Source of the DNA: Bacillota bacterium
GTDB taxonomy: Bacteria > Patescibacteriota > Patescibacteriia > Patescibacteriales > UBA12465
DNA: 64,000 bases
NCBI GenBank assembly: GCA_050259635.1
Contig: JBLNBA010000002.1
Location: forward strand, 154,906-218,905
Reading direction: 5' to 3'
Positions 5,029-62,127 of the stretch are shown in pieces (within the stretch, counting starts at the first letter, position 1; every line of letters starts with the position of its first letter). The notes beneath the pieces are model-generated. The model worked only from the letters and a program-made list of their open reading frames with translations. It ran no database searches and was not told where the DNA came from. The translations under genes were made by a program, and so were the position numbers.

Positions 5029-6322
5029 CTATCACATCATAACGATCGGCTGCCAGATGAATAAGGCGGACAGCGAGCGCATAGCCGCTTTTTTGTCGTC
5101 CGCGGGTTACAAAGAACAGAAGGGTTGGATCGGCGCTAAATTGGTAGTCCTTACTACCTGCGGCATCAGGCAATCCGCGGAGGACCGGGTCTATGGCTTG
5201 GTTAACCATATCAGGCAAAATAATCCTAGCGCAAAAATAGTCATTACCGGCTGCTTAGCCAAGCGCCAGGACGTCATGCGCCGCCTCAAAGGCAAGGTTG
5301 ATCTATTTTTGCCCATTAATGAGCTGCCTCTTCTGTTAGAAAAATTAGCGGGGAAAGAAGATGTCCAGGGCTTGGAAAAGGCCAGGGAAATGGCCGGTGA
5401 AAAGTATCTTCTCATTGAACCTGAATATGAGAGTGCATTCAGTGCCTATCTTCCTATCGGGAATGGCTGCAATAATTTCTGTTCATATTGCGTTGTGCCT
5501 TATGCGCGAGGGCGGGAAGTGTATCGCCCCGCTACCCATATATTGGCGGAGGCAAAATCATTGGTGGAGAGAGGCTATAGGGAAATTATCCTCATTGCTC
5601 AGAATGTTAATAGCTATAAGAGCGGCTGTACGGATTTTCCCTTGCTCCTGCAGAAGCTAGTGAAAATAAAAGGAGATTTTTGGATCCGTTTTTCTTCGAG
5701 CCACCCAAAGGACCTTTCACCTGAGCTGATTAAAACTCTGGGGACCTCGGATAAGATCTGCCATCATCTCCATGTGGCCGTGCAGTCCGGAGATGACGCC
5801 GTCCTTAAAGCTATGAATCGGCAGTACACAGCCGCCCGCTTTAAGGAGCTAATCGCGGCCATCAGGAAGGCTAAACCGGGGATAGCCGTGACCACGGATG
5901 CAATCGTCGGTTTTCCCGGGGAGACTTTGGCTCAGTTCAAGAATACCGCCAGGCTTTTCAGGGAGATGGATTTCGATATGGCGTATACCGCACAGTTCAG
6001 TCCTCGCCCGGGGACGGCTGCTTGGAAGATGAAAGATAACGTCAGTCGCGATGAGAAGAAAAGACGCGAGAGAGTCCTTAATGCCATCCTTGCCAAGAGC
6101 GGGAAGAAGATAAACAAAACATATCTGGGCAAGAAAATTCGTGTCCTGACGGAAGGGAAGAATTCTAAGGGAAAATATTACGGCAAGAGTTCCACTTTCA
6201 AGACGGTTGTTTTCAAGGCGGAAGGCATTAGGCCCGAAGAAATTATCGGCTCTTTCGTTAAAGTGGGTATAGGCAAGATAAATGATTTCGGTTTAGAAGG
6301 AAAATATGAAGGCAAGGACTGA
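5018..6322 (+). CDS. miaB: tRNA-i6A37 methylthiotransferase MiaB (radical SAM, TRAM domain)
   Basis: MiaB-type N-terminus; radical-SAM CNNFCSYCVVP motif; followed directly by miaA. Confidence 0.8.
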   Translation: MKDSYHIITIGCQMNKADSERIAAFLSSAGYKEQKGWIGAKLVVLTTCGIRQSAEDRVYGLVNHIRQNNPSAKIVITGCLAKRQDVMRRLKGKVDLFLPINELPLLLEKLAGKEDVQGLEKAREMAGEKYLLIEPEYESAFSAYLPIGNGCNNFCSYCVVPYARGREVYRPATHILAEAKSLVERGYREIILIAQNVNSYKSGCTDFPLLLQKLVKIKGDFWIRFSSSHPKDLSPELIKTLGTSDKICHHLHVAVQSGDDAVLKAMNRQYTAARFKELIAAIRKAKPGIAVTTDAIVGFPGETLAQFKNTARLFREMDFDMAYTAQFSPRPGTAAWKMKDNVSRDEKKRRERVLNAILAKSGKKINKTYLGKKIRVLTEGKNSKGKYYGKSSTFKTVVFKAEGIRPEEIIGSFVKVGIGKINDFGLEGKYEGKD

Positions 6323-7244
6323 CAAGATTAAAGCAGTCGTAATTCTCGGCCCGACTGCCTCCGGAAAGACTGCTTTAGCGGTCCGTTTGGCGCGGGCTTA
6401 TAATGGCGAAGTGGTTTCGGCTGATAGCCGGCAGGTATATCGTGGCATGGATATTGGCACGGGAAAAGATTTGGATGAATACGCAAAAAGCGGTGAACCG
6501 GTGGGACACCATCTTATCGATGTCGTGGGCCCGATGGAAGAATTTAATCTGGCAAAATATCAAAAGCTGGCGTGGGAAGCGATCCAAGATATACATCGAC
6601 GGGGTAAATTACCGATTATTGCCGGCGGGGCGGGCCTGTATCTGCAGGCCATAGTGGATGGGTATGAACTTAGCGAGGGAGGACCGGATAAGGGAAAAAG
6701 AGCGGAGTTGGAGTCTTTAGGGAAGGATGAACTGTTTTCCAGGCTCCATGGCCTAAAACCGGAGTTTGCAGATAAACTCAATAATAGCGACCGTAATAAC
6801 CCTAGGCGATTAGTGAGGTACCTTGAGATCTTTTCTACGGATGCTAAGCCCGCTGGCAAGAAAACACCCGACGCGGACTTTTTACTGATTGGCCTTGACG
6901 TGGATGATGGAGAAATGAGGGAAAGGATACGTTCGAGGATACTCCGCCGCCTAGAAGAGGAGGACATGGCAGGGGAAGTAGACCGGTTGCATGATGCCGG
7001 GGTGGATTGGAAAAGACTGGCTTCGTTTGGGTTGGAATATCGCTTCATCTCATATTATCTGACCGGAAAGCTAGAATACGATGAGATGGTCGAGAAGCTC
7101 TCGGATGCCTCATACCGTTTCGGCAAGCGCCAGAAAACTTGGTTCCGTCGCTGGGAGAAGCAGGGAAGAAAGATATGGTGGGCAAAGAGCCAGGACGAGG
7201 CGGAGAGAATGACAAGGGAATGGTTAATGAATAGGACATCTTAA
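6306..7244 (+). CDS. miaA: tRNA dimethylallyltransferase MiaA
   Basis: P-loop GPTASGKT, DSRQVYRGMDIGTGK motif. Confidence 0.85.
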   Translation: MKARTDKIKAVVILGPTASGKTALAVRLARAYNGEVVSADSRQVYRGMDIGTGKDLDEYAKSGEPVGHHLIDVVGPMEEFNLAKYQKLAWEAIQDIHRRGKLPIIAGGAGLYLQAIVDGYELSEGGPDKGKRAELESLGKDELFSRLHGLKPEFADKLNNSDRNNPRRLVRYLEIFSTDAKPAGKKTPDADFLLIGLDVDDGEMRERIRSRILRRLEEEDMAGEVDRLHDAGVDWKRLASFGLEYRFISYYLTGKLEYDEMVEKLSDASYRFGKRQKTWFRRWEKQGRKIWWAKSQDEAERMTREWLMNRTS

Positions 7245-7322: not shown

Positions 7323-8831
7323 TTACTTCATCAGCAATTTTTCCAACAGGTCTCTTACCTTTTCCGGATTAGCTTTTCCTTTGGTTTCCGCCATAGCTTT
7401 ACCGACGAAGAATTGGATTAAAGGAGTTTTGCCATCGCGGTATTCTTGTGCTTGCCTGGGGTTCGCTCCGATAACGGCGCGGATCGCCTTCTCTAGTTCT
7501 TCCTCGTTATCCATCTGTTCCAGGCCTAATTTAGCCATGATATCCGTGGGGTCACCGCCTTCCGAATACATGATTTCCATGATACGCTGACCCGCGCTGG
7601 AGTTTACCTTGTTCTGCCAGATCAGAGCCATGAGTTCCGCAAAGTTCTCGGCGGTCATCTTGAGATCCTCCACTTTCTTCTTGTCGGCATTGAGATTTTT
7701 CAGGAGTTCGCCGCTTATCCAATTGGCGGCCATCTGCGAGGCGTTTTTGTCCTGTCGCTCAAAGTCATCGCCGTTCGCCTCGATCCAAGCGCCCATTTCG
7801 GATACGACGTTCTCAAAGAAACCGGCAAGATCCTTGTCGTTGGCAATCACTTCCGCAGTGTCTTCCCGCAGGGCGTACTGGCGGACGAAACGTTTTGTCT
7901 TGGCGGTTGGTAATTCCACTAACATAGTTTTTATTTGGTTAATCCATTCATCGTTTATTTGGATCGGAGGGATGTCCGGTTCGGGGAAATAGCGGTAGTC
8001 TGCGGCTGTCTCTTTGCGGCGCTGGGCGATAGTGATGTTTTTCTTGTCATCCCAACCCCTGGTTTCCGGGATGATTTCTTCTCCCTTTTCCAGAGCCTCG
8101 GTTTGACGGTTAATTTCGTGGTTGATGGCTTTTTCCACTGCTCGGAAAGAGTTGAGGTTCTTCACTTCCACCTTAGCGTTGAGCTTCATCCCTTTTTCCG
8201 GGTAGACCAGTCCGCCCGATATCTTATAGGCACCCTCTTCTTGAACGCTAATGTTGGCTTCACAGCGCATTTCTCCCTTTTCCATATCGGCGCCGCTAAC
8301 GCCTAGGAAGCGCAGGACGCGCTGATAGGATTGGCAAAAGCGCTTGGCTTCCTCGGCGCTGGTAATGACCGGGTCCGTCACTAGCTCTACGAGCGGAGTC
8401 CCGGCACGGTTGAAGTCTATGAGGGTATCGTTACTGCCAGCCCGATGGAAGGATTTTCCCGTGTCTTCTTCCAGATGTATGCGGGTAATGTCTATTTCCC
8501 GGCCGCCAATATCCAACTTCCCGCCTCGGCAGAAAGGCTGGTCGTATTGAGAAATCTGATACCCTTTTGGAAGATCGGGATAGAAGTAGTTCTTCCGGTC
8601 GAATTTTGAATCACGGGCGATATCGCTACCTAAGGCCAGGCCGATGAGAATGGTCCAGTCTATCGCTTTCTTATTTGGTACGGGAAGGGTGCCGGGATGG
8701 CCTAAGCAGATGGGGCATACCAAGGTGTTGGGCGCTTTGCCCTCGCTGTTATTTCCGCAGGAGCAGAACATTTTGCTTTCGGTCTTCAGTTCAGCATGGA
8801 TTTCGAGTCCGATAATGGCTTTATACTTCAT
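7323..8831 (-). CDS. gatB: Asp-tRNA(Asn)/Glu-tRNA(Gln) amidotransferase subunit B
   Basis: N-terminus MKYKAIIGLEIHAELKTESKMFCSC typical of GatB; about 500 aa. Confidence 0.85.
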   Translation of the reverse strand: MKYKAIIGLEIHAELKTESKMFCSCGNNSEGKAPNTLVCPICLGHPGTLPVPNKKAIDWTILIGLALGSDIARDSKFDRKNYFYPDLPKGYQISQYDQPFCRGGKLDIGGREIDITRIHLEEDTGKSFHRAGSNDTLIDFNRAGTPLVELVTDPVITSAEEAKRFCQSYQRVLRFLGVSGADMEKGEMRCEANISVQEEGAYKISGGLVYPEKGMKLNAKVEVKNLNSFRAVEKAINHEINRQTEALEKGEEIIPETRGWDDKKNITIAQRRKETAADYRYFPEPDIPPIQINDEWINQIKTMLVELPTAKTKRFVRQYALREDTAEVIANDKDLAGFFENVVSEMGAWIEANGDDFERQDKNASQMAANWISGELLKNLNADKKKVEDLKMTAENFAELMALIWQNKVNSSAGQRIMEIMYSEGGDPTDIMAKLGLEQMDNEEELEKAIRAVIGANPRQAQEYRDGKTPLIQFFVGKAMAETKGKANPEKVRDLLEKLLMK

Positions 8832-8869: not shown

Positions 8870-10204
8870 CTAGCGGAGTCCCGTGCTGCCGAAACCGCCG
8901 TCTAAGCGGCTGGTATCATTTTCCACCTTTCCTTCTTCTATCTTGGGAAATTCTACTTTCTGGATTAAGAGCTGAGCTATTTTCTGTCCCGCTTGGATAT
9001 TATATATATCTTCGCTCAGATTCTTGAAGACGACCATGATTTCTCCGCGGTAGCCGGAATCTATGACTCCGCCCATCGTCTTATATCCTTGGGCGGCTAA
9101 GCCGCTCTTATCCCAGATCAAACCGGCATACCCCTCCGGAATCATGAGCTTGACGCCGGTGCGGATGCGATCCGTGCCATAGGCGGGGACGGAGACGTTT
9201 TCGCAGGCATAAAGATCAAGGCCGGCATCAGTGGCATGTGCCCGCGTGGGCAGCTTGGCTTCTGCGTGAACTCTCTCGGCAAGGATTGCTGGTTTCTCAT
9301 TATCCGTGACAGAGGCAGGGAGGGCAGTGGCAGCGGTAACGGGGGTAAGATTCTCTCGCGTGTCTTCCGGGTGGGCGGGGACTCCTTTTTCTCCCCTGTC
9401 TGTTTGCCCGATCTCCGCTTTGGGGGTGTCGATGAACTGTGGCAGGTTACTGCCGATTTTTCCCTTGCCTACGAGGATATCCGCCACCGGTTGCATGCCG
9501 GCCGGCTTTTTCGTACCGCCGATGCTCAGGATGCGGTTGACATAGAGCCAGACAAGGTAGTTTATATCTTCTCGGCTCATAATCTCGCCGTTGCGGGTGC
9601 AGCGGATGAGACGGAAGTCCGGCATCGTCTGTGCTATTTCCAGATATACCTGTTCTGCTTTTTTGAGATGCTGCAGGTTTTCTTCGTGGATGTCTTTGGT
9701 TTTTCCTTTCCAATCCTCGCGTCCGCGGTCCTGAGCCATCTTTTGGGCTATTTCCGCCTCTACATGCAGGATGAGATAGAGATCGGGCTTGGGAATACGG
9801 AAGATCTTGTATTCGATCTCGCTTAACCAGTTGAAGAATAACTTCCTTTCCAAAGCGTTTTCTATTTTCCCCCCCTGGTGGGCGAAGCTGGCGGAAACAT
9901 AACGGTTACAGACCACGATCTTGCCCTGGGAAAGCCATTCGCGGATCTTGAAGCTGGCATCAAAACGATCGGTGGCGTATAAGATCGAGGCTGCATACGG
10001 ATTGACGTCATCTGCGCCTCCGTATTTTCCTGAGAGATATTCTTCCACCATGCCCGCGGATTTCTGATTATATTGCGGAAAGTCTGCCAACTCCACGTCG
10101 TATCCTTCGGCCGCGAGCTTGGATACCAAAAGTTGCAGCTGTGTAGTTTTGCCGCTGCCGTCGGTGCCGTCTATGACAATGAATTTTCCGGGATAGGATG
10201 ACAT
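8870..10204 (-). CDS. tmk-dut: fusion protein: thymidylate kinase (N-terminal) + dUTPase (C-terminal)
   Basis: Tmk P-loop IVIDGTDGSGKTTQ and DRFDAS motif; all five dUTPase motifs at the C-terminus (AGLDLY, KSG, GVIDSGYRGE, KIAQLL, RLDGGFGSTG); low-complexity linker about 100 aa. Confidence 0.8.
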   Translation of the reverse strand: MSSYPGKFIVIDGTDGSGKTTQLQLLVSKLAAEGYDVELADFPQYNQKSAGMVEEYLSGKYGGADDVNPYAASILYATDRFDASFKIREWLSQGKIVVCNRYVSASFAHQGGKIENALERKLFFNWLSEIEYKIFRIPKPDLYLILHVEAEIAQKMAQDRGREDWKGKTKDIHEENLQHLKKAEQVYLEIAQTMPDFRLIRCTRNGEIMSREDINYLVWLYVNRILSIGGTKKPAGMQPVADILVGKGKIGSNLPQFIDTPKAEIGQTDRGEKGVPAHPEDTRENLTPVTAATALPASVTDNEKPAILAERVHAEAKLPTRAHATDAGLDLYACENVSVPAYGTDRIRTGVKLMIPEGYAGLIWDKSGLAAQGYKTMGGVIDSGYRGEIMVVFKNLSEDIYNIQAGQKIAQLLIQKVEFPKIEEGKVENDTSRLDGGFGSTGLR

Positions 10205-10263
10205 AGGGATAAGAAAAAAGCGCCGGCATACGCCTGAGCACTCCTCCTTGCTTTTTTAAACTA

Positions 10264-10821
10264 TCATTTATTCTTTATTTCCTCAATAAGATTATCTAGC
10301 TGGGATTCCAGATTTTCCAGGTCGCCGTTATTATCCAGATGGAATGAGGCGGCCGCCATGGTTTCAGGGATCTGTTGCTCTGCTTCTCGGTTTTCGTCGG
10401 CCAGGAATTCCGGGTAGGTTTTTTCCGCGTCGCCGGCATTTTCATTGCGCTGTTTCATGCGTTCGTATCTGGTGTTGGGGTCGGCCTCGATACTGATCAG
10501 ATAGAACCCCGGTATGTCTTTTAGGGAGGAGATATCTTCCAAGCGGCGGACGCCGTCGATAACAACGATTTCGCTATCATTTTTAAGAGCATCTTCGGCA
10601 ATGACTCTCGATAATATATCGGCTCCAAAACGGTTACGTAGGTCCAGGGAAAGCCCTTGGAGGCCTTCACGGGTGGCAGGAAGGTACAGGCGGTCCATGA
10701 TGTCGCGTAGGGGCGTGGAGAAACGGGCGCTTTTGGCACCATATTTCTCACCTAAATATTTTTGGCAGACCGCTTTGCCACTTGCCAGGCGGCCGACGAA
10801 TCCGAGGACGAATCTTGCCAT
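10264..10821 (-). CDS. small P-loop kinase, dephospho-CoA-kinase(CoaE)-like fold with non-canonical Walker A (GRLASGKAV)
   Basis: P-loop near the N-terminus; VVIDGVR and HLDNNGDLENL segments resemble CoaE; function inferred only. Confidence 0.35.
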   Translation of the reverse strand: MARFVLGFVGRLASGKAVCQKYLGEKYGAKSARFSTPLRDIMDRLYLPATREGLQGLSLDLRNRFGADILSRVIAEDALKNDSEIVVIDGVRRLEDISSLKDIPGFYLISIEADPNTRYERMKQRNENAGDAEKTYPEFLADENREAEQQIPETMAAASFHLDNNGDLENLESQLDNLIEEIKNK

Positions 10822-10822
10822 A

Positions 10823-12121
10823 TTAGCGTTGTTCCTTCAATACGATGTCATGGAGTCCGCGGCGCACATCCCAATCATCCAGGTCTAGATCGCAGTGGAG
10901 CGCCACTTCCGGCAGATTCTGGCGGAGGGCTTCATACATCTTGTGGGCCACTCGTCTGAGACTAGGGTGGACAGTCTTTCCCGAGCGTAGTTCGGTTACA
11001 TAGATGGCGGAAGTGAGAGGGTTGGTGATGTGGCAGAAGACATTGAAGCCCATGGCGATGTAGTATTGCTTGAGTTCGGGGCTTGCTTCGAGTGCATCCA
11101 CCTTGGTTTTCTGGGAAGCGATGAGGTTCTCCGCATCAAGGCGCATCTCTTCTGGCAGCTGTTCTAGGTACCAAGATTGGAAACCGAGTTGCGTGGTGAG
11201 CAGAGGAGTGCGGGCGATAGCACTGCGGTGGCGCTGAATATCCCGATATGAACCGTAATCGAGTAGGAACTCGAAGCGGCAATTTCCGAGGTCGGCCATG
11301 AAATAGGGAAGATTGGTTTTGATCGGGCGCTTATCCAATGCTTCCTGGAAATTCTTCAATTCATTACGGTCGATGTCGGTTGAGAATGAGAATTCCTTGG
11401 GGTCTTTCGGGGCGAAATATGAATATTTTGCCATCATCTCTTCACGGTAGGCTTCTTGTTCCGGATATTGCTGGTGGGAAAAGCTGTTTTCATAACGGGA
11501 GCGCAGTTCGGCAAGAATCTGTTCGGCTAATTCGCGCATCTCCTGGAGAGGATGATGCCTGAGAAGAGAGAGCTTATCCCAGGCTTGGCGCAGATTGGTG
11601 TGCCAGCTGAGCTGAGTGGTGATGCCGGCCGGCAAAAAGCCGCGCATGATGTCGAAGGAGCGGGCGCTGATTGCCTTGTCATACATTTTCTCGTCCTCTT
11701 CGTCTCGGCGGGGGTATTTTTCCTTGAGGAAGGGAGTGATCCTTTCACGCCCTTTGATATAAAAATCCATCCAGGCATCGATAATCGCTTTGGATTCGGC
11801 AGTCGCTAAAGGGTCTATTATCGCTTGGCTGGCCATGTCGATGTAGCGGGTGCTGGTCTCCTGTCCGCTATATAGTGGCCAGTCCTGCACCGCCTTATCG
11901 GCTAGGATGCTCAAGCCTTCGATGAAGATGGTAGTGCTGCCGCAATCCGCAATAGAAGCGTGCCCGTAACCGACGTAGAACGTGGACATGAATTTGCCGG
12001 AGCCGCTCTGCCTTACTTTTTCCACATGCTCTTCGACGCTTTTTGGGCTGCGGGAATATAGCGCCTGCATCATGGCGGTGTCCTCCGGGTTGAACTCATC
12101 GTAGACGAATACTTTTGCCAT
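10823..12121 (-). CDS. thyX: FAD-dependent thymidylate synthase ThyX-like, long form (432 aa)
   Basis: N-terminal GYGHASIADCGSTTIFIEGLS resembles the ThyX core, and ...STRY follows; an RHR motif is present only in the second half (QRHRSAIAR); context with dCMP deaminase, Tmk and Dut. Confidence 0.5.
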   Translation of the reverse strand: MAKVFVYDEFNPEDTAMMQALYSRSPKSVEEHVEKVRQSGSGKFMSTFYVGYGHASIADCGSTTIFIEGLSILADKAVQDWPLYSGQETSTRYIDMASQAIIDPLATAESKAIIDAWMDFYIKGRERITPFLKEKYPRRDEEDEKMYDKAISARSFDIMRGFLPAGITTQLSWHTNLRQAWDKLSLLRHHPLQEMRELAEQILAELRSRYENSFSHQQYPEQEAYREEMMAKYSYFAPKDPKEFSFSTDIDRNELKNFQEALDKRPIKTNLPYFMADLGNCRFEFLLDYGSYRDIQRHRSAIARTPLLTTQLGFQSWYLEQLPEEMRLDAENLIASQKTKVDALEASPELKQYYIAMGFNVFCHITNPLTSAIYVTELRSGKTVHPSLRRVAHKMYEALRQNLPEVALHCDLDLDDWDVRRGLHDIVLKEQR

Positions 12122-12131
12122 ATGTTTGAAA

Positions 12132-12659
12132 TTATTGGTCTTTATATACTGTCATCATTTCGGAGGCCAGAAAGAATTCTACTTTTGCCAGTCCGAAAAT
12201 TTCTTTGCTTCGTGAACCGGCGTGGTAGTCCTGGGCGCAGACGACCCGTTTTATCCCGGCATTGATAATCATCTTGGCGCAGGTATAGCAGGGAGTCATC
12301 TTGCAATATAGCGTACCGCCTTCTAAGGGGATGCCCATGCGAGCCGCCTCGCAGATGGCATTCTGTTCGGCATGGGTAGTGCGGATGCAATGTCGGCTTG
12401 AGGTGCCGTCTTCGTGAGTAACGGTGTGCATCTCGTGCCCCACCTCATCGCAGTGGGGAGCGCCTACGGGGGAGCCGACATAGCCGGTCGCCACGATGCG
12501 GCGGTCTTTCGTTATCACACAGCCCGCGCGTCCCCGATCACAGGTACCGCGAGTGCCGACCATTACGGCGATTTTGAGGAAATATTCATCCCAAGCCGGG
12601 CGAACGTAGCTGTTTTCTTCGCTCATAGATTTCAGGTGAGATAATGAGGTTAAAAGCAA
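12132..12659 (-). CDS. dCMP deaminase (zinc-dependent cytidine/deoxycytidylate deaminase family)
   Basis: HAEQNAI ... PCYTCAKMI zinc-binding motifs; start may be the internal Met at about 12626. Confidence 0.8.
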   Translation of the reverse strand: MLLTSLSHLKSMSEENSYVRPAWDEYFLKIAVMVGTRGTCDRGRAGCVITKDRRIVATGYVGSPVGAPHCDEVGHEMHTVTHEDGTSSRHCIRTTHAEQNAICEAARMGIPLEGGTLYCKMTPCYTCAKMIINAGIKRVVCAQDYHAGSRSKEIFGLAKVEFFLASEMMTVYKDQ

Positions 12660-12798: not shown

Positions 12799-14037
12799 AT
12801 GAAATATTGGCTATATATCTTCCTTGTCTTCGCCGGCCTGCTCGGTTTCGCTTCGGGAAGGGCTCAAGCGGCAGGGATAGCAGAAAATCTCTCCGGCCGG
12901 ATTGTCTTGAGCGTGCAGGAGCATGGCGAAGCTTGGTATATTAATCCGGTTGATCTCCGCCGTTACTTTCTGGGACGTCCTTCTGATGCTTTTGGAGTAA
13001 TGAGAGAGCTGGGGTTGGGGATCAGCGAGCAGCAGTTCCAGGAAATCGCCCAAGCTGGCTTGCCGGTGGAAGGGAACAAAGAATTGGCAGCTAAGCTTTC
13101 CGGCAAAATTTTGCTTCAGGTGGAGAAGAATGGCGAAGCTTGGTATGTTAATCCGGTTGATCTTAAAAAATACTATCTCGGCCGCCCCGATGATGCGTTC
13201 CGTATCATGCGCGAATTGGGTTTGGGCATAACCAGGGAGGACCTGGCTCGGATACATAAGCCGGGCTTGAGCGAAAGCCTTGATCAATTTAGCTCCTATG
13301 ACCTGAAGACGATCTCGACTGAGCGCGGTGATTTTAAGGCGGATGTGATGAAGATCAGCTTGAAGGATCCGGATTTAAAGATCATGACTATCACTGCTTC
13401 CGGGGCGGATTGCAAGGATGGACCTTGCCCGGCGGGAACCCTTGGCTCATTCGTATTTGATAATAATAGCTTCGCCGGGGTAAATGGCAGCTATTTTTGT
13501 TCCGGCAACGGGTGTGGCGCCGCCAATTATTTCTTCTTTCCTATCTATGACAGCCGGACGGGAGTGATGGTTAATCAAGACCAGCTAAAATATTGGACGA
13601 CCGGTCCGCTCATCGTCTTTGATGCTGATAACCGCTTTTATTACTTCAAGGACTCGCGGGAGTTTAAGAGCGTGGCGGACTTTGAAAGCACTTATGGTAC
13701 CCGCATACAGGCAGCTATCGGAAACAAGCCCAGATTGGTGGAAAAAGGGATGAATGCACTCATCGACTGGGAACTGGATAAGTCCCAGCGAACGGGGAAA
13801 TACTGGCGTAATGCCATCGGCTATATGGAAGATCCTTTGGATCCGGGGAAGGGTGATTTGTATATCGTGATCGCTCGAGCGGCTACGGTGGACGACTTGG
13901 CGGTCGTCATGAAATCCATGAATATGGATTATGCCTTGAATTTGGATGGAGGATCGTCTTCTGCTTTGATCTATAACGGCGAATACATGGTCGGACCCGG
14001 ACGGAATATTCCCAATGTCCTGGTATTCAAGCATTGA
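12799..14037 (+). CDS. secreted protein: signal peptide, two tandem copies of an about 50-aa repeat, C-terminal phosphodiester-glycosidase-like (DUF2233/NAGPA) domain
   Basis: repeats LSGRIVLSVQEHGEAWYINPVDLRRYFLGRP / LSGKILLQVEKNGEAWYVNPVDLKKYYLGRP; C-terminal ALNLDGGSSS motif. Confidence 0.5.
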   Translation: MKYWLYIFLVFAGLLGFASGRAQAAGIAENLSGRIVLSVQEHGEAWYINPVDLRRYFLGRPSDAFGVMRELGLGISEQQFQEIAQAGLPVEGNKELAAKLSGKILLQVEKNGEAWYVNPVDLKKYYLGRPDDAFRIMRELGLGITREDLARIHKPGLSESLDQFSSYDLKTISTERGDFKADVMKISLKDPDLKIMTITASGADCKDGPCPAGTLGSFVFDNNSFAGVNGSYFCSGNGCGAANYFFFPIYDSRTGVMVNQDQLKYWTTGPLIVFDADNRFYYFKDSREFKSVADFESTYGTRIQAAIGNKPRLVEKGMNALIDWELDKSQRTGKYWRNAIGYMEDPLDPGKGDLYIVIARAATVDDLAVVMKSMNMDYALNLDGGSSSALIYNGEYMVGPGRNIPNVLVFKH

Positions 14038-25114: not shown

Positions 25115-25159
25115 TTGTTTATTACAAAAAATCACCCATAAAGGTGATGTTTTTTTCAG

Positions 25160-25233
25160 GAGCCGCCTGTCGGATTCGAACCCACGACCTGCTGTTTACA
25201 AAACAGCTGCTCTAACCAGCTGAGCTAAGGCGG
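25160..25233 (-). tRNA. tRNA-Thr (anticodon UGU)
   Basis: cloverleaf deduced by hand: acceptor GCCGCCT/AGGCGGC, anticodon stem GCUGU/ACAGC, loop UUUGUAA. Confidence 0.8.
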
Positions 25234-25244
25234 CGACAAGCTAA

Positions 25245-25321
25245 ATGGTGCGCCCAGAGGGATTCGAACCCACGACCGTCTCCTTAAAAGGGAGCTGCTC
25301 TACCAACTGAGCTATAGGCGC
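25245..25321 (-). tRNA. tRNA-Lys (anticodon UUU), CCA encoded
   Basis: acceptor GCGCCTA/TGGGCGC, GTTCGAATCC T-arm, anticodon loop CUUUUAA. Confidence 0.8.
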
Positions 25322-31238: not shown

Positions 31239-31240
31239 GT

Positions 31241-31310
31241 AGTCCCTAGGGGAATCGAACCCCTGTTACCAGGATGAGAACCTGGTGTCCTAACCGTTAG
31301 ACGAAGGGAC
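31241..31310 (-). tRNA. tRNA-Glu (anticodon CUC)
   Basis: GTCCCTTCGTCTAACGG...anticodon stem CCAGG/CCTGG with loop UUCUCAU; T-arm GGTTCGATTCC. Confidence 0.75.
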
Positions 31311-31313
31311 CGT

Positions 31314-58921: not shown

Positions 58922-58994
58922 GCCGTTTTAGCTCAGTTGGTAGAGCATCTCCATGGTAAGGAGAAGGTCTCGGGTCCGAATCCCGAAAACGGCT
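58922..58994 (+). tRNA. tRNA-Thr (anticodon GGU)
   Basis: acceptor GCCGTTT/AAAACGGC, D-stem GCTC/GAGC, anticodon stem TCTCC/GGAGA with loop AUGGUAA. Confidence 0.75.
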
Positions 58995-59004
58995 CGGAAA
59001 AGAA

Positions 59005-62041: not shown

Positions 62042-62127
62042 GGGTCGGTACCGAAGCGGTCAAACGGGACAGACTGTAAATCTGTTGGCTCACGCCTTCG
62101 CAGGTTCGAATCCTGCCCGGCCCACCA
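62042..62127 (+). tRNA. tRNA-Tyr (anticodon GUA), type II with long variable arm, CCA encoded
   Basis: close match to canonical bacterial tRNA-Tyr (..CAGACTGTAAATCTG..GGTTCGAATCC..CCACCA). Confidence 0.85.

Follow-up and report, generated by a model that had tools for sequence, protein, structure and literature searches.

A ThyX-like protein with two ThyX folds in one chain, the predicted thymidylate synthase of a Patescibacteria dTTP-precursor operon

Of the thymidylate synthases, ThyA yields dihydrofolate and needs dihydrofolate reductase (DHFR), whereas ThyX uses flavin adenine dinucleotide (FAD) and NADPH and yields tetrahydrofolate. Canonical ThyX enzymes (PF02511) include TM0449 of Thermotoga maritima (Tm), Rv2754c of Mycobacterium tuberculosis (Mtb) and A674R of PBCV-1. 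It has been reported that each ThyX active site lies among three subunits of a tetramer with 222 symmetry (PMC3498832). In Mtb ThyX, subunit A supplies RHR and R199 (Tm R174), subunit B supplies S71 and R190 (Tm T55 and R165), and subunit C supplies R87, S105, R107 and Y108, of which the last three are Tm S88, R90 and Y91 (PMC6514825). In this study, a 64,000-nt stretch of contig JBLNBA010000002.1 (positions 154,906–218,905, forward strand; the window) was analysed, in which a minus-strand run of genes encodes a 432-aa ThyX-like protein (long ThyX) and, next to it, a 185-aa P-loop kinase-like protein (the kinase). The locus is read as a housekeeping operon for precursors of deoxythymidine triphosphate (dTTP) in a bacterium of the Patescibacteria, or candidate phyla radiation (CPR), with the long ThyX as its predicted thymidylate synthase, built of two ThyX domains, and the kinase as a predicted deoxynucleoside monophosphate (dNMP) kinase; these readings taken jointly are given a probability of roughly 0.7.

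The genomic position of the long ThyX is the first line of evidence. Relatives of the kinase were traced to 80 genomic loci, which were taken with up to 6 kb of flank on each side and probed by tblastn; the long ThyX was found at 28 of them and ThyA at 45 (37 with a DHFR-like gene), both together at none, and neither within the flanks at 7. The two synthases occupy the same slot between the gene for deoxycytidine monophosphate (dCMP) deaminase (dcd) and the kinase gene; for instance, the dcd–kinase interval of a related locus (L003, 4669–5995) encodes a DHFR/RibD_C protein of 168 aa and a ThyA, 271 aa long, that matches PF00303 with E 4e-119. Kinases that are 64–71% identical are flanked by either type of synthase. 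Because the long ThyX sits in the same slot as ThyA and never beside it, it is predicted to be the thymidylate synthase of the operon. The pattern is an in-situ non-orthologous displacement between ThyA and the long ThyX in which DHFR accompanies ThyA only, a textbook signature of ThyX function. Natural fusions of a dCMP deaminase (PF00383) to a long ThyX, 613–629 aa in length (P0454, P0459 and P0463), are also found.

The second line of evidence is the fold. PF02511 matches the long ThyX with 71.3 bits (cut-off 24.8) over residues 15–208 only, which is nearly the whole profile, and leaves the C-terminal half (C-half) uncovered. A full-length AlphaFold2 (AF2) model, built on an alignment of 67 relatives, is compact, with a predicted local distance difference test (pLDDT) value of 93.9 and a predicted template modelling (pTM) score of 0.91; the order strand, helix, short strand, long helices, strand, helix, helix occurs in it twice, at residues 62–209 and 280–402, and a DWP motif in the first repeat and the RHR motif in the second each follow directly after the equivalent helix. 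All 50 PDB matches listed by Foldseek for this model are ThyX, each spanning about one half of it (template modelling (TM) score 0.6 by target and 0.36 by query). When the C-half (residues 214–432) is modelled alone, the pLDDT is 92.8, and among its 137 PDB matches with E ≤ 1e-3 the best 50 listed are all ThyX, headed by PBCV-1 ThyX (4fzb, E 2e-6, TM 0.58/0.65). At the sequence level, the C-half matches the expected part of the Pfam Thy1 profile below threshold (E 0.03–0.04), shows further sub-threshold PBCV-1 matches at profile positions 330–412, and is aligned by hhalign to Tm ThyX (the sequence used is identical to PDB 1KQ4) with E 0.0055 and with RHR on RHR. The original prediction had described a tandem or pseudo-dimeric ThyX whose N-terminal half (N-half) keeps the GHxS core and carries DWP in the place of RHR, the latter occurring only in the C-half. 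Translation verified these motifs, and the tandem architecture agrees with a C-half that models as ThyX on its own, with the doubled order of elements and with complementary residues in 67 of 67 relatives; in the AF2 models, both halves fold as ThyX (pLDDT 93–94).

The third line of evidence is the distribution of the active-site residues between the halves. DWP lies at residues 80–82 (11876–11884) and SGQETSTRY at residues 85–93, while the single RHR of the protein lies at residues 297–299 (11225–11233); in the HMMER alignment to Mtb ThyX, DWP falls exactly under RHR 95–97. The register of the positions in Table 1 comes from this alignment and from hhalign alignments to Tm ThyX, and the counts refer to 67 family members with 35–84% identity.

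Table 1. Active-site positions of Tm ThyX and their counterparts in the two halves of the long ThyX (conservation among 67 family members)
Tm ThyX	N-half	C-half
H53	H54, 67/67	not conserved
T55 (Mtb S71)	S56, 67/67	not conserved
R74	K76, 67/67	R293, 67/67
R78-H79-R80	D / variable / P or Q	R297 and R299, 67/67; H298, 65/67
E86	E88, 65/67	lost
S88	S90, 67/67	hydrophobic
R90	R92, 67/67	hydrophobic or polar
Y91	Y93, 65/67	lost
R147	R160, 67/67	Y353
R165	R178, 55/67	L369
R174	variable	R379, 67/67

As shown in Table 1, most of the mapped residues for deoxyuridine monophosphate (dUMP) and FAD are kept in one half only, R74 being the exception, with conserved counterparts in both. The N-half reads DWP-LY-S-G-Q-E-T-S-T-R-Y, thus also keeping Q87, and the pattern SxQExSxRY is found in the N-half of the relatives; in the C-half, RHR is followed by hydrophobic residues, and H385 and R389 are further invariants (each 67/67). 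The ThyX motif RHRx7-8S with S-x-R-Y is absent from either single domain, and only the two halves taken together make it complete. Set against the published subunit roles, the C-half has kept exactly the residues for the role of subunit A, and the N-half exactly those for the roles of subunits B and C.

The partition and the published subunit roles together lead to a prediction for the assembly. If the chains of a 222 tetramer are called A to D and the subunit roles a to c, its four sites can be written (A:a, B:b, C:c), (B:a, A:b, D:c), (C:a, D:b, A:c) and (D:a, C:b, B:c); if A and D are occupied by C-domains and B and C by N-domains, the first and fourth sites would be complete, whereas the second and third would lack all of the residues. 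Two fused chains would then form a pseudo-tetramer in which each live site consists of one C-domain and both N-domains. From conservation and the published structures, we infer that the fused chains form a dimer and that only two of the four sites are active; the residues that have been lost would be precisely those serving the dead sites only, and the long ThyX would then be an active enzyme with two FAD/dUMP sites.

The kinase is the second subject of the operon. It has 103 close homologues and matches SSO1041/UPF0200 (PDB 3LW7 and 3H0K) end to end, with E 7e-12 as a single sequence and 5e-22 as a family profile; it also matches PRK08356 (NF006226) with E 6e-22 and 78.4 bits, below the NCBIfam cut-off of 189. 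PHROG 139, annotated as 'deoxynucleoside monophosphate kinase', is matched over the full length of the kinase (E 1e-15, residues 3–184 on profile positions 83–265), other CPR members reach E 1e-17 to 1e-20 against the same profile, and T4 gp1 (sequence verified against X03016.1) covers the same profile range with E 2e-65. Two tested Bacillus-phage kinases of phrog_139 exceed the cut-off of Pfam DNMK. The link between the kinase and T4 gp1 rests on the PHROG and Pfam profiles, because the kinase of phage Bastille found no significant match among PDB sequences.

The P-loop of the kinase is GRLASGKA (residues 10–17; 10771–10794). An alignment of 24 family members shows G10, G15 and K16 without variation; position 17 is taken by A, D, E or G, never by S or T; the P-loop of T4 gp1 is GVKRSGKDT, with its K aligned to K16, and adenylate kinases have GKG. 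Since the missing S/T is shared by all the aligned members, by the active T4 gp1 and by adenylate kinases, it is a family trait compatible with catalysis and not a sign of inactivation. The invariants R39, R51, R62, D89-G90, R92-R93, R121, R125 and D131 in the same alignment fit the catalytic set of nucleoside monophosphate (NMP) kinases.

The neighbours of the kinase point in the same direction. Within the flanks, a thymidylate synthase is found near it at 73 of the 80 loci, dcd at 65 and tmk at 57; tmk is immediately downstream at 46 loci, and dcd is directly upstream at 19. Full-length homologues are encoded in 44 Bacillus and Paenibacillus phage records, and in phages Bastille, BCU4, Goe3 and Goe20 the homologue comes directly after a thymidylate synthase; the phage kinases in L081 5917–7594 (Bastille) and L083 2561–4076 (BCU4) have canonical GKS/GKT P-loops, and DHFR is the next gene in BCU4. 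The annotations of the phage proteins vary among 'dNMP kinase', 'adenylate kinase' and 'dephospho-CoA kinase'. Because Bacillus phages carry the kinase after a thymidylate synthase, the linkage of the two recurs independently of the CPR operon. A tie of the kinase to ThyX specifically was rejected, the kinase being equally present in ThyA-type operons. By homology and context, the likeliest reading is that the kinase serves the pyrimidine branch of deoxynucleotide metabolism, where it would phosphorylate a dNMP with ATP; this is rated slightly more probable than not.

Several points count against this reading. The direct alignment of the kinase profile with T4 gp1 covers the first 37 residues only (E 0.0017), and the CPR kinase itself has no match to Pfam DNMK (PF21448). 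A canonical dTMP (thymidylate) kinase, Tmk, is encoded next to it, so that the obvious acceptor, dTMP, is already served, and in the literature found no function is reported for SSO1041/UPF0200, the closest solved relative. In addition, the kinase is homologous to the non-deaminase N-domain of anti-phage deoxycytidine triphosphate (dCTP) deaminases, a domain that may bind nucleotides instead of transferring phosphate. In the alternative that follows this homology, the kinase-like protein would chiefly bind a nucleotide in partnership with the dCMP deaminase instead of acting as a kinase by itself, and the pair would be a split counterpart of AvcD-type enzymes, able to sense or accept dCTP. The PADLOC dCTP-deaminase profile covers kinase residues 4–183 with its positions 155–334 (E 3e-13) and the deaminase with its positions 437–498, and NF041025 matches the kinase with E 2.5e-10; this model scores 39.8 bits for the kinase and 70.1 bits for the deaminase, with a cut-off of 400, each protein matching its own part of the profile only. 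The frequency of dcd at the loci, including the 19 with dcd directly upstream of the kinase, agrees with such a partnership, as does the report that AvcD deaminates both dCTP and dCMP (PMC10511110), and the deoxyuridine triphosphate (dUTP) so formed would be handled by the dUTPase (Dut) of the same operon. Against it, a thymidylate synthase lies between the two genes at most loci, no dcd is seen nearby at 15 of the 80, and the phage homologues pair with thymidylate synthase and not with a deaminase; furthermore, the full arginine set of NMP kinases is invariant, and the deaminase gives E 4e-33 for the housekeeping ComEB and E 2e-19 for the anti-phage enzyme, and so stands nearer to the former. 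At the locus, nothing was noticed that would suggest an antitoxin or a defence setting. The partnership, the main rival reading, is considered unlikely, and its fuller form, in which the P-loop protein binds the triphosphate and the pair deaminates dCTP and dCMP as a split housekeeping counterpart of AvcD, is rated a little lower still. If it were true, the operon would run from dCTP to dUTP, by Dut to dUMP, by ThyX to dTMP and by Tmk to deoxythymidine diphosphate (dTDP), which would explain the presence of Dut, and the CPR operon would be a cellular ancestor or relative of the defence enzyme.

The reading of the long ThyX as a tandem thymidylate synthase also has points to its disadvantage. 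The TIGR02170 equivalog gives 30.3 bits, which does not reach its cut-off of 87.9. The profile alignment of the N-half with the C-half by hhalign is weak, with E 0.011, and some of it is out of register; the C-half profile found no match among PDB sequences; because of this, the duplication is supported by modelled fold and motif register and not by sequence statistics. The AF2 models are of a single chain and are blind to the dimer, and the N-half residue in the slot of Tm R165, R178, is R in 55 of the 67 members only. It may then be asked whether the protein is a flavoenzyme with another chemistry, such as a C5-methylase of UMP or dCMP or a hydroxymethylase for modified DNA, or whether its C-half is a non-catalytic scaffold. 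The score below the equivalog cut-off, the absence of the canonical RHR...S motif from any single domain and the occurrence of relatives in jumbo phages, a group in which DNA modification is frequent, would fit another chemistry. It is made improbable by the exact slot of ThyA and DHFR with a co-occurrence of 0/80, by the restriction of DHFR to ThyA, the classic ThyX signature, by the conservation of most canonical dUMP/FAD residues in just one half and by the fusions to dCMP deaminase, a producer of dUMP. A scaffold would be at odds with the invariants of the C-half, which sit on catalytic positions (RHR and the R174 equivalent) and not on a generic surface.

For the kinase, a genuine dephospho-CoA kinase (CoaE) is very improbable. 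Several homologues bear this name in JGI annotations, TIGR00152 gives a weak match (E 5e-4), and the CoaE structures 2grj and 2if2 are matched in part. The TIGR00152 match, however, is 20 bits against a cut-off of 65.55 and is confined to residues 5–29, the P-loop; PF01121 has no match at E ≤ 0.1, UPF0200 and phrog_139 match better and end to end, and where CoaE has the Walker A pattern GxxGxGK[ST], the kinase has GRLASGKA. TK1334 and TK2192 of T. kodakarensis, archaeal CoaE-like P-loop proteins (arCOG01045), lack dephospho-CoA kinase activity (PMC6650551); judging from its primer-encoded N-terminus, TK1334 would be of UPF0200 type. The thymidylate synthase at 73 of 80 loci likewise speaks for another role, and the phage homologues adjoin this enzyme in a setting where synthesis of coenzyme A (CoA) would be senseless. 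CoaE was thus rejected on the family models and on the deoxynucleotide context. The original prediction had suggested a deoxynucleotide kinase in place of a dephospho-CoA kinase, for which the phrog_139 match, the operon context, the phage neighbours and the CoaE models argue; its CoaE-like layout holds at the level of the P-loop and not for the rest of the protein, which is better labelled UPF0200/DNMK-like, and the non-canonical GKA of Walker A is present as described, being a trait of the family and not peculiar to this gene.

The long ThyX belongs to a large family. A search returned 3744 homologues, mostly 430–500 aa long; at E < 1e-30 they form 512 clusters at 50% identity. The best 120 homologues are 428–441 aa long and 63–84% identical. 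The family extends beyond Patescibacteria to metagenome-assembled genomes (MAGs) labelled Acidimicrobiaceae and Methanosarcina and to phages: the Vibrio jumbo phages Yong and BONAISHI encode homologues, mostly annotated 'hypothetical', with 32–33% identity over 91–98% of the query (that of Vibrio phage vB_VmeM-Yong MS32 lies at L082 5938–7323), and Microcystis phage Ma-LMM01 encodes one of 491 aa (BFVD A0A7D4). In full-length structural matches, the Vibrio-type protein reaches TM 0.93 and that of Ma-LMM01 TM 0.74. Literature searches found no description of a two-domain ThyX architecture and nothing relevant on ThyX or dNMP kinase in Patescibacteria/CPR. Chlamydial ThyX proteins may be about 530 aa long; a search with a 531-aa relative (P0373) returned metagenomic proteins only and no Chlamydia. 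A frameshift or misassembly might also have run two neighbouring thyX genes together into the 432-aa open reading frame (ORF). Such an artefact is suggested by the unusual length alone and was rejected as practically negligible in view of the family-wide conservation of the architecture, with thousands of independent homologues of the same length, 512 clusters at 50% identity, one compact AF2 model and the same architecture in the phage homologues.

The features of the locus are listed in Table 2. The minus-strand order of dCMP deaminase, ThyX-like protein, kinase, Tmk-Dut and gatB given in the original prediction was reproduced with its ORFs and coordinates by Pfam and NCBIfam; its gaps of 10 nt or less are found at two of the four junctions (dcd–thyX 10 nt, thyX–kinase 1 nt) and not at the other two (kinase–tmk/dut 59 nt, tmk/dut–gatB 38 nt).

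Table 2. Features of the dTTP-precursor locus (positions in the window)
Feature	Position	Strand	Length	Evidence
dCMP deaminase (zinc-dependent, ComEB-like)	12132-12659	-	175 aa as listed	PF00383, E 1.9e-23
Tandem ThyX-like protein	10823-12121	-	432 aa	PF02511, E 1e-19
N-terminal ThyX domain	11483-12121	-	residues 1-213	alignments to Mtb and Tm ThyX; column counts, n=67
C-terminal ThyX domain	10826-11482	-	residues 214-432	AF2, Foldseek, hhalign; column counts, n=67
P-loop kinase-like protein, UPF0200/DNMK clade	10264-10821	-	185 aa	
Tmk-Dut fusion	8870-10204	-	444 aa	PF02223, E 5e-26; PF00692, E 3e-33
GatB, final gene of the run	7323-8831	-	502 aa	PF02934, E 5e-111

The translated deaminase contains the HAE and PCxxC motifs and matches TIGR02571 with E 4e-33, under the family cut-off. 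Its true start is probably the ATG at 12626 and not the TTG at 12659, because the shorter form, which begins 33 nt inside the listed ORF and has 164 aa, fits the orthologue of 165 aa in locus L003. The Tmk-Dut protein consists of a dTMP kinase (residues ~6–203), a low-complexity linker of ~100 aa and a dUTPase (residues ~305–442), and the in-frame fusion is found at 39 of the 45 related loci where both parts were detected. GatB is downstream at 55 of the 80 loci and is probably a conserved neighbour that stands functionally outside the nucleotide module. In the proposed route, dUMP would be formed from dCMP by the deaminase and from dUTP by Dut, converted to dTMP by the long ThyX and phosphorylated to dTDP by Tmk.

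A terminator-like hairpin (10218–10235) followed by a T run lies in the kinase–tmk/dut gap (10205–10263, minus strand), and a promoter-like site (10291–10319) lies within the 3' end of the kinase gene; in the promoter and terminator scans of the operon, site counts were no higher than the shuffled expectation. Divergently from the operon, a 412-aa protein is encoded at 12799–14037 (plus strand), with a hydrophobic N-terminus (possibly a signal peptide), two tandem repeats (GRIVLSV..GEAWY.NP.DL..Y.LGRP.DAF..MRELGLGI, ~70 aa each) and, at the C-terminus, a NAGPA phosphodiester-glycosidase domain; locus L003 has this neighbour as well. At the other end, miaA, encoding an isopentenyl pyrophosphate (IPP) transferase, adjoins gatB on the opposite strand (6306–7244, plus strand). 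The sole Rfam matches in the window are five tRNA genes (Thr-TGT, Lys-TTT, Glu-CTC, Thr-GGT and Tyr-GTA) at 25159–25321 (minus), 31239–31311 (minus), 58922–58995 (plus) and 62042–62127 (plus). Identical copies of the ThyX-like and kinase proteins occur in an NCBI MAG labelled 'Bacillota bacterium', and many ENA relatives are labelled 'uncultured Gammaproteobacteria'; the named relatives are all Patescibacteria, e.g., Falkowbacteria and Paceibacterota, and given these and the gene content, both labels are probably wrong.

As an antibacterial target, ThyX has been studied, and its sites, built from three identical subunits, make it hard to assign residue roles to each subunit. The fused ThyX separates the three subunit roles onto two domains and would offer a naturally asymmetric form of the enzyme for studies of mechanism and structure. 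It is widespread, occurring in Patescibacteria, in large phages and in other uncultured prokaryotes, and would be a clean case of a homo-oligomeric enzyme whose copies degenerated in complementary ways once it had been duplicated in tandem. In standard annotation, one Thy1 domain is shown and the tandem architecture is masked. For the kinase, the label 'dephospho-CoA kinase' would wrongly imply a step of CoA synthesis in metabolic reconstructions of CPR, while the evidence points to a cellular member of a phage-type dNMP kinase clade in the deoxynucleotide salvage/dTTP module on which the reduced CPR organisms depend.

Compared with known systems, the kinase stands closest to two groups. In the group of T4 gp1, PHROG 139 and DNMK, it matches the PHROG 139 profile over its full length and shares a C-terminal N-x-G...L motif and, with T4 gp1 (GKD), the lack of S/T after the lysine; the conserved basic motif after the central strand is DGVRR in the kinase and VRQ/ARQ in the aligned Bacillus-phage kinases, and the phage members of PHROG 139 adjoin a thymidylate synthase too. 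It differs from T4 gp1 in being cellular and shorter (185 versus 241 aa), in missing the T4 insertion and in having a separate Tmk beside it. With UPF0200/SSO1041, its best end-to-end match among solved structures, it has the DGVR motif and the NMP-kinase fold in common, whereas the archaeal proteins carry a canonical GKS P-loop. Bacterial CoaE is similar in size and in the P-loop NMP-kinase fold, but only the P-loop and C-terminal fragments align. The N-domain of the AvcD-type anti-phage dCTP deaminase is homologous to the kinase and its C-domain to the operon deaminase; here, by contrast, these are two genes in reverse order, usually split by the thymidylate synthase, in a housekeeping operon. 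By its sequence relations, the kinase belongs to the UPF0200/DNMK clade as a cellular representative, wrongly annotated in some databases as dephospho-CoA kinase, and is not categorically new.

As for the synthase, ThyA plus DHFR has the identical operon slot and is mutually exclusive with the long ThyX, which makes the two functionally equivalent in context, while the fold and chemistry of ThyA are unrelated to those of ThyX. Canonical ThyX has the same fold as both halves of the long protein and the same genomic role, that of the sole thymidylate synthase without DHFR. It is a homotetramer with four sites; the long protein, of ~430 aa, has two domains per chain, no one of which holds the full ThyX motif, and is predicted to form a dimer with two sites. 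It is best described as a fused, functionally asymmetric architectural variant within the ThyX superfamily and not as something categorically new.

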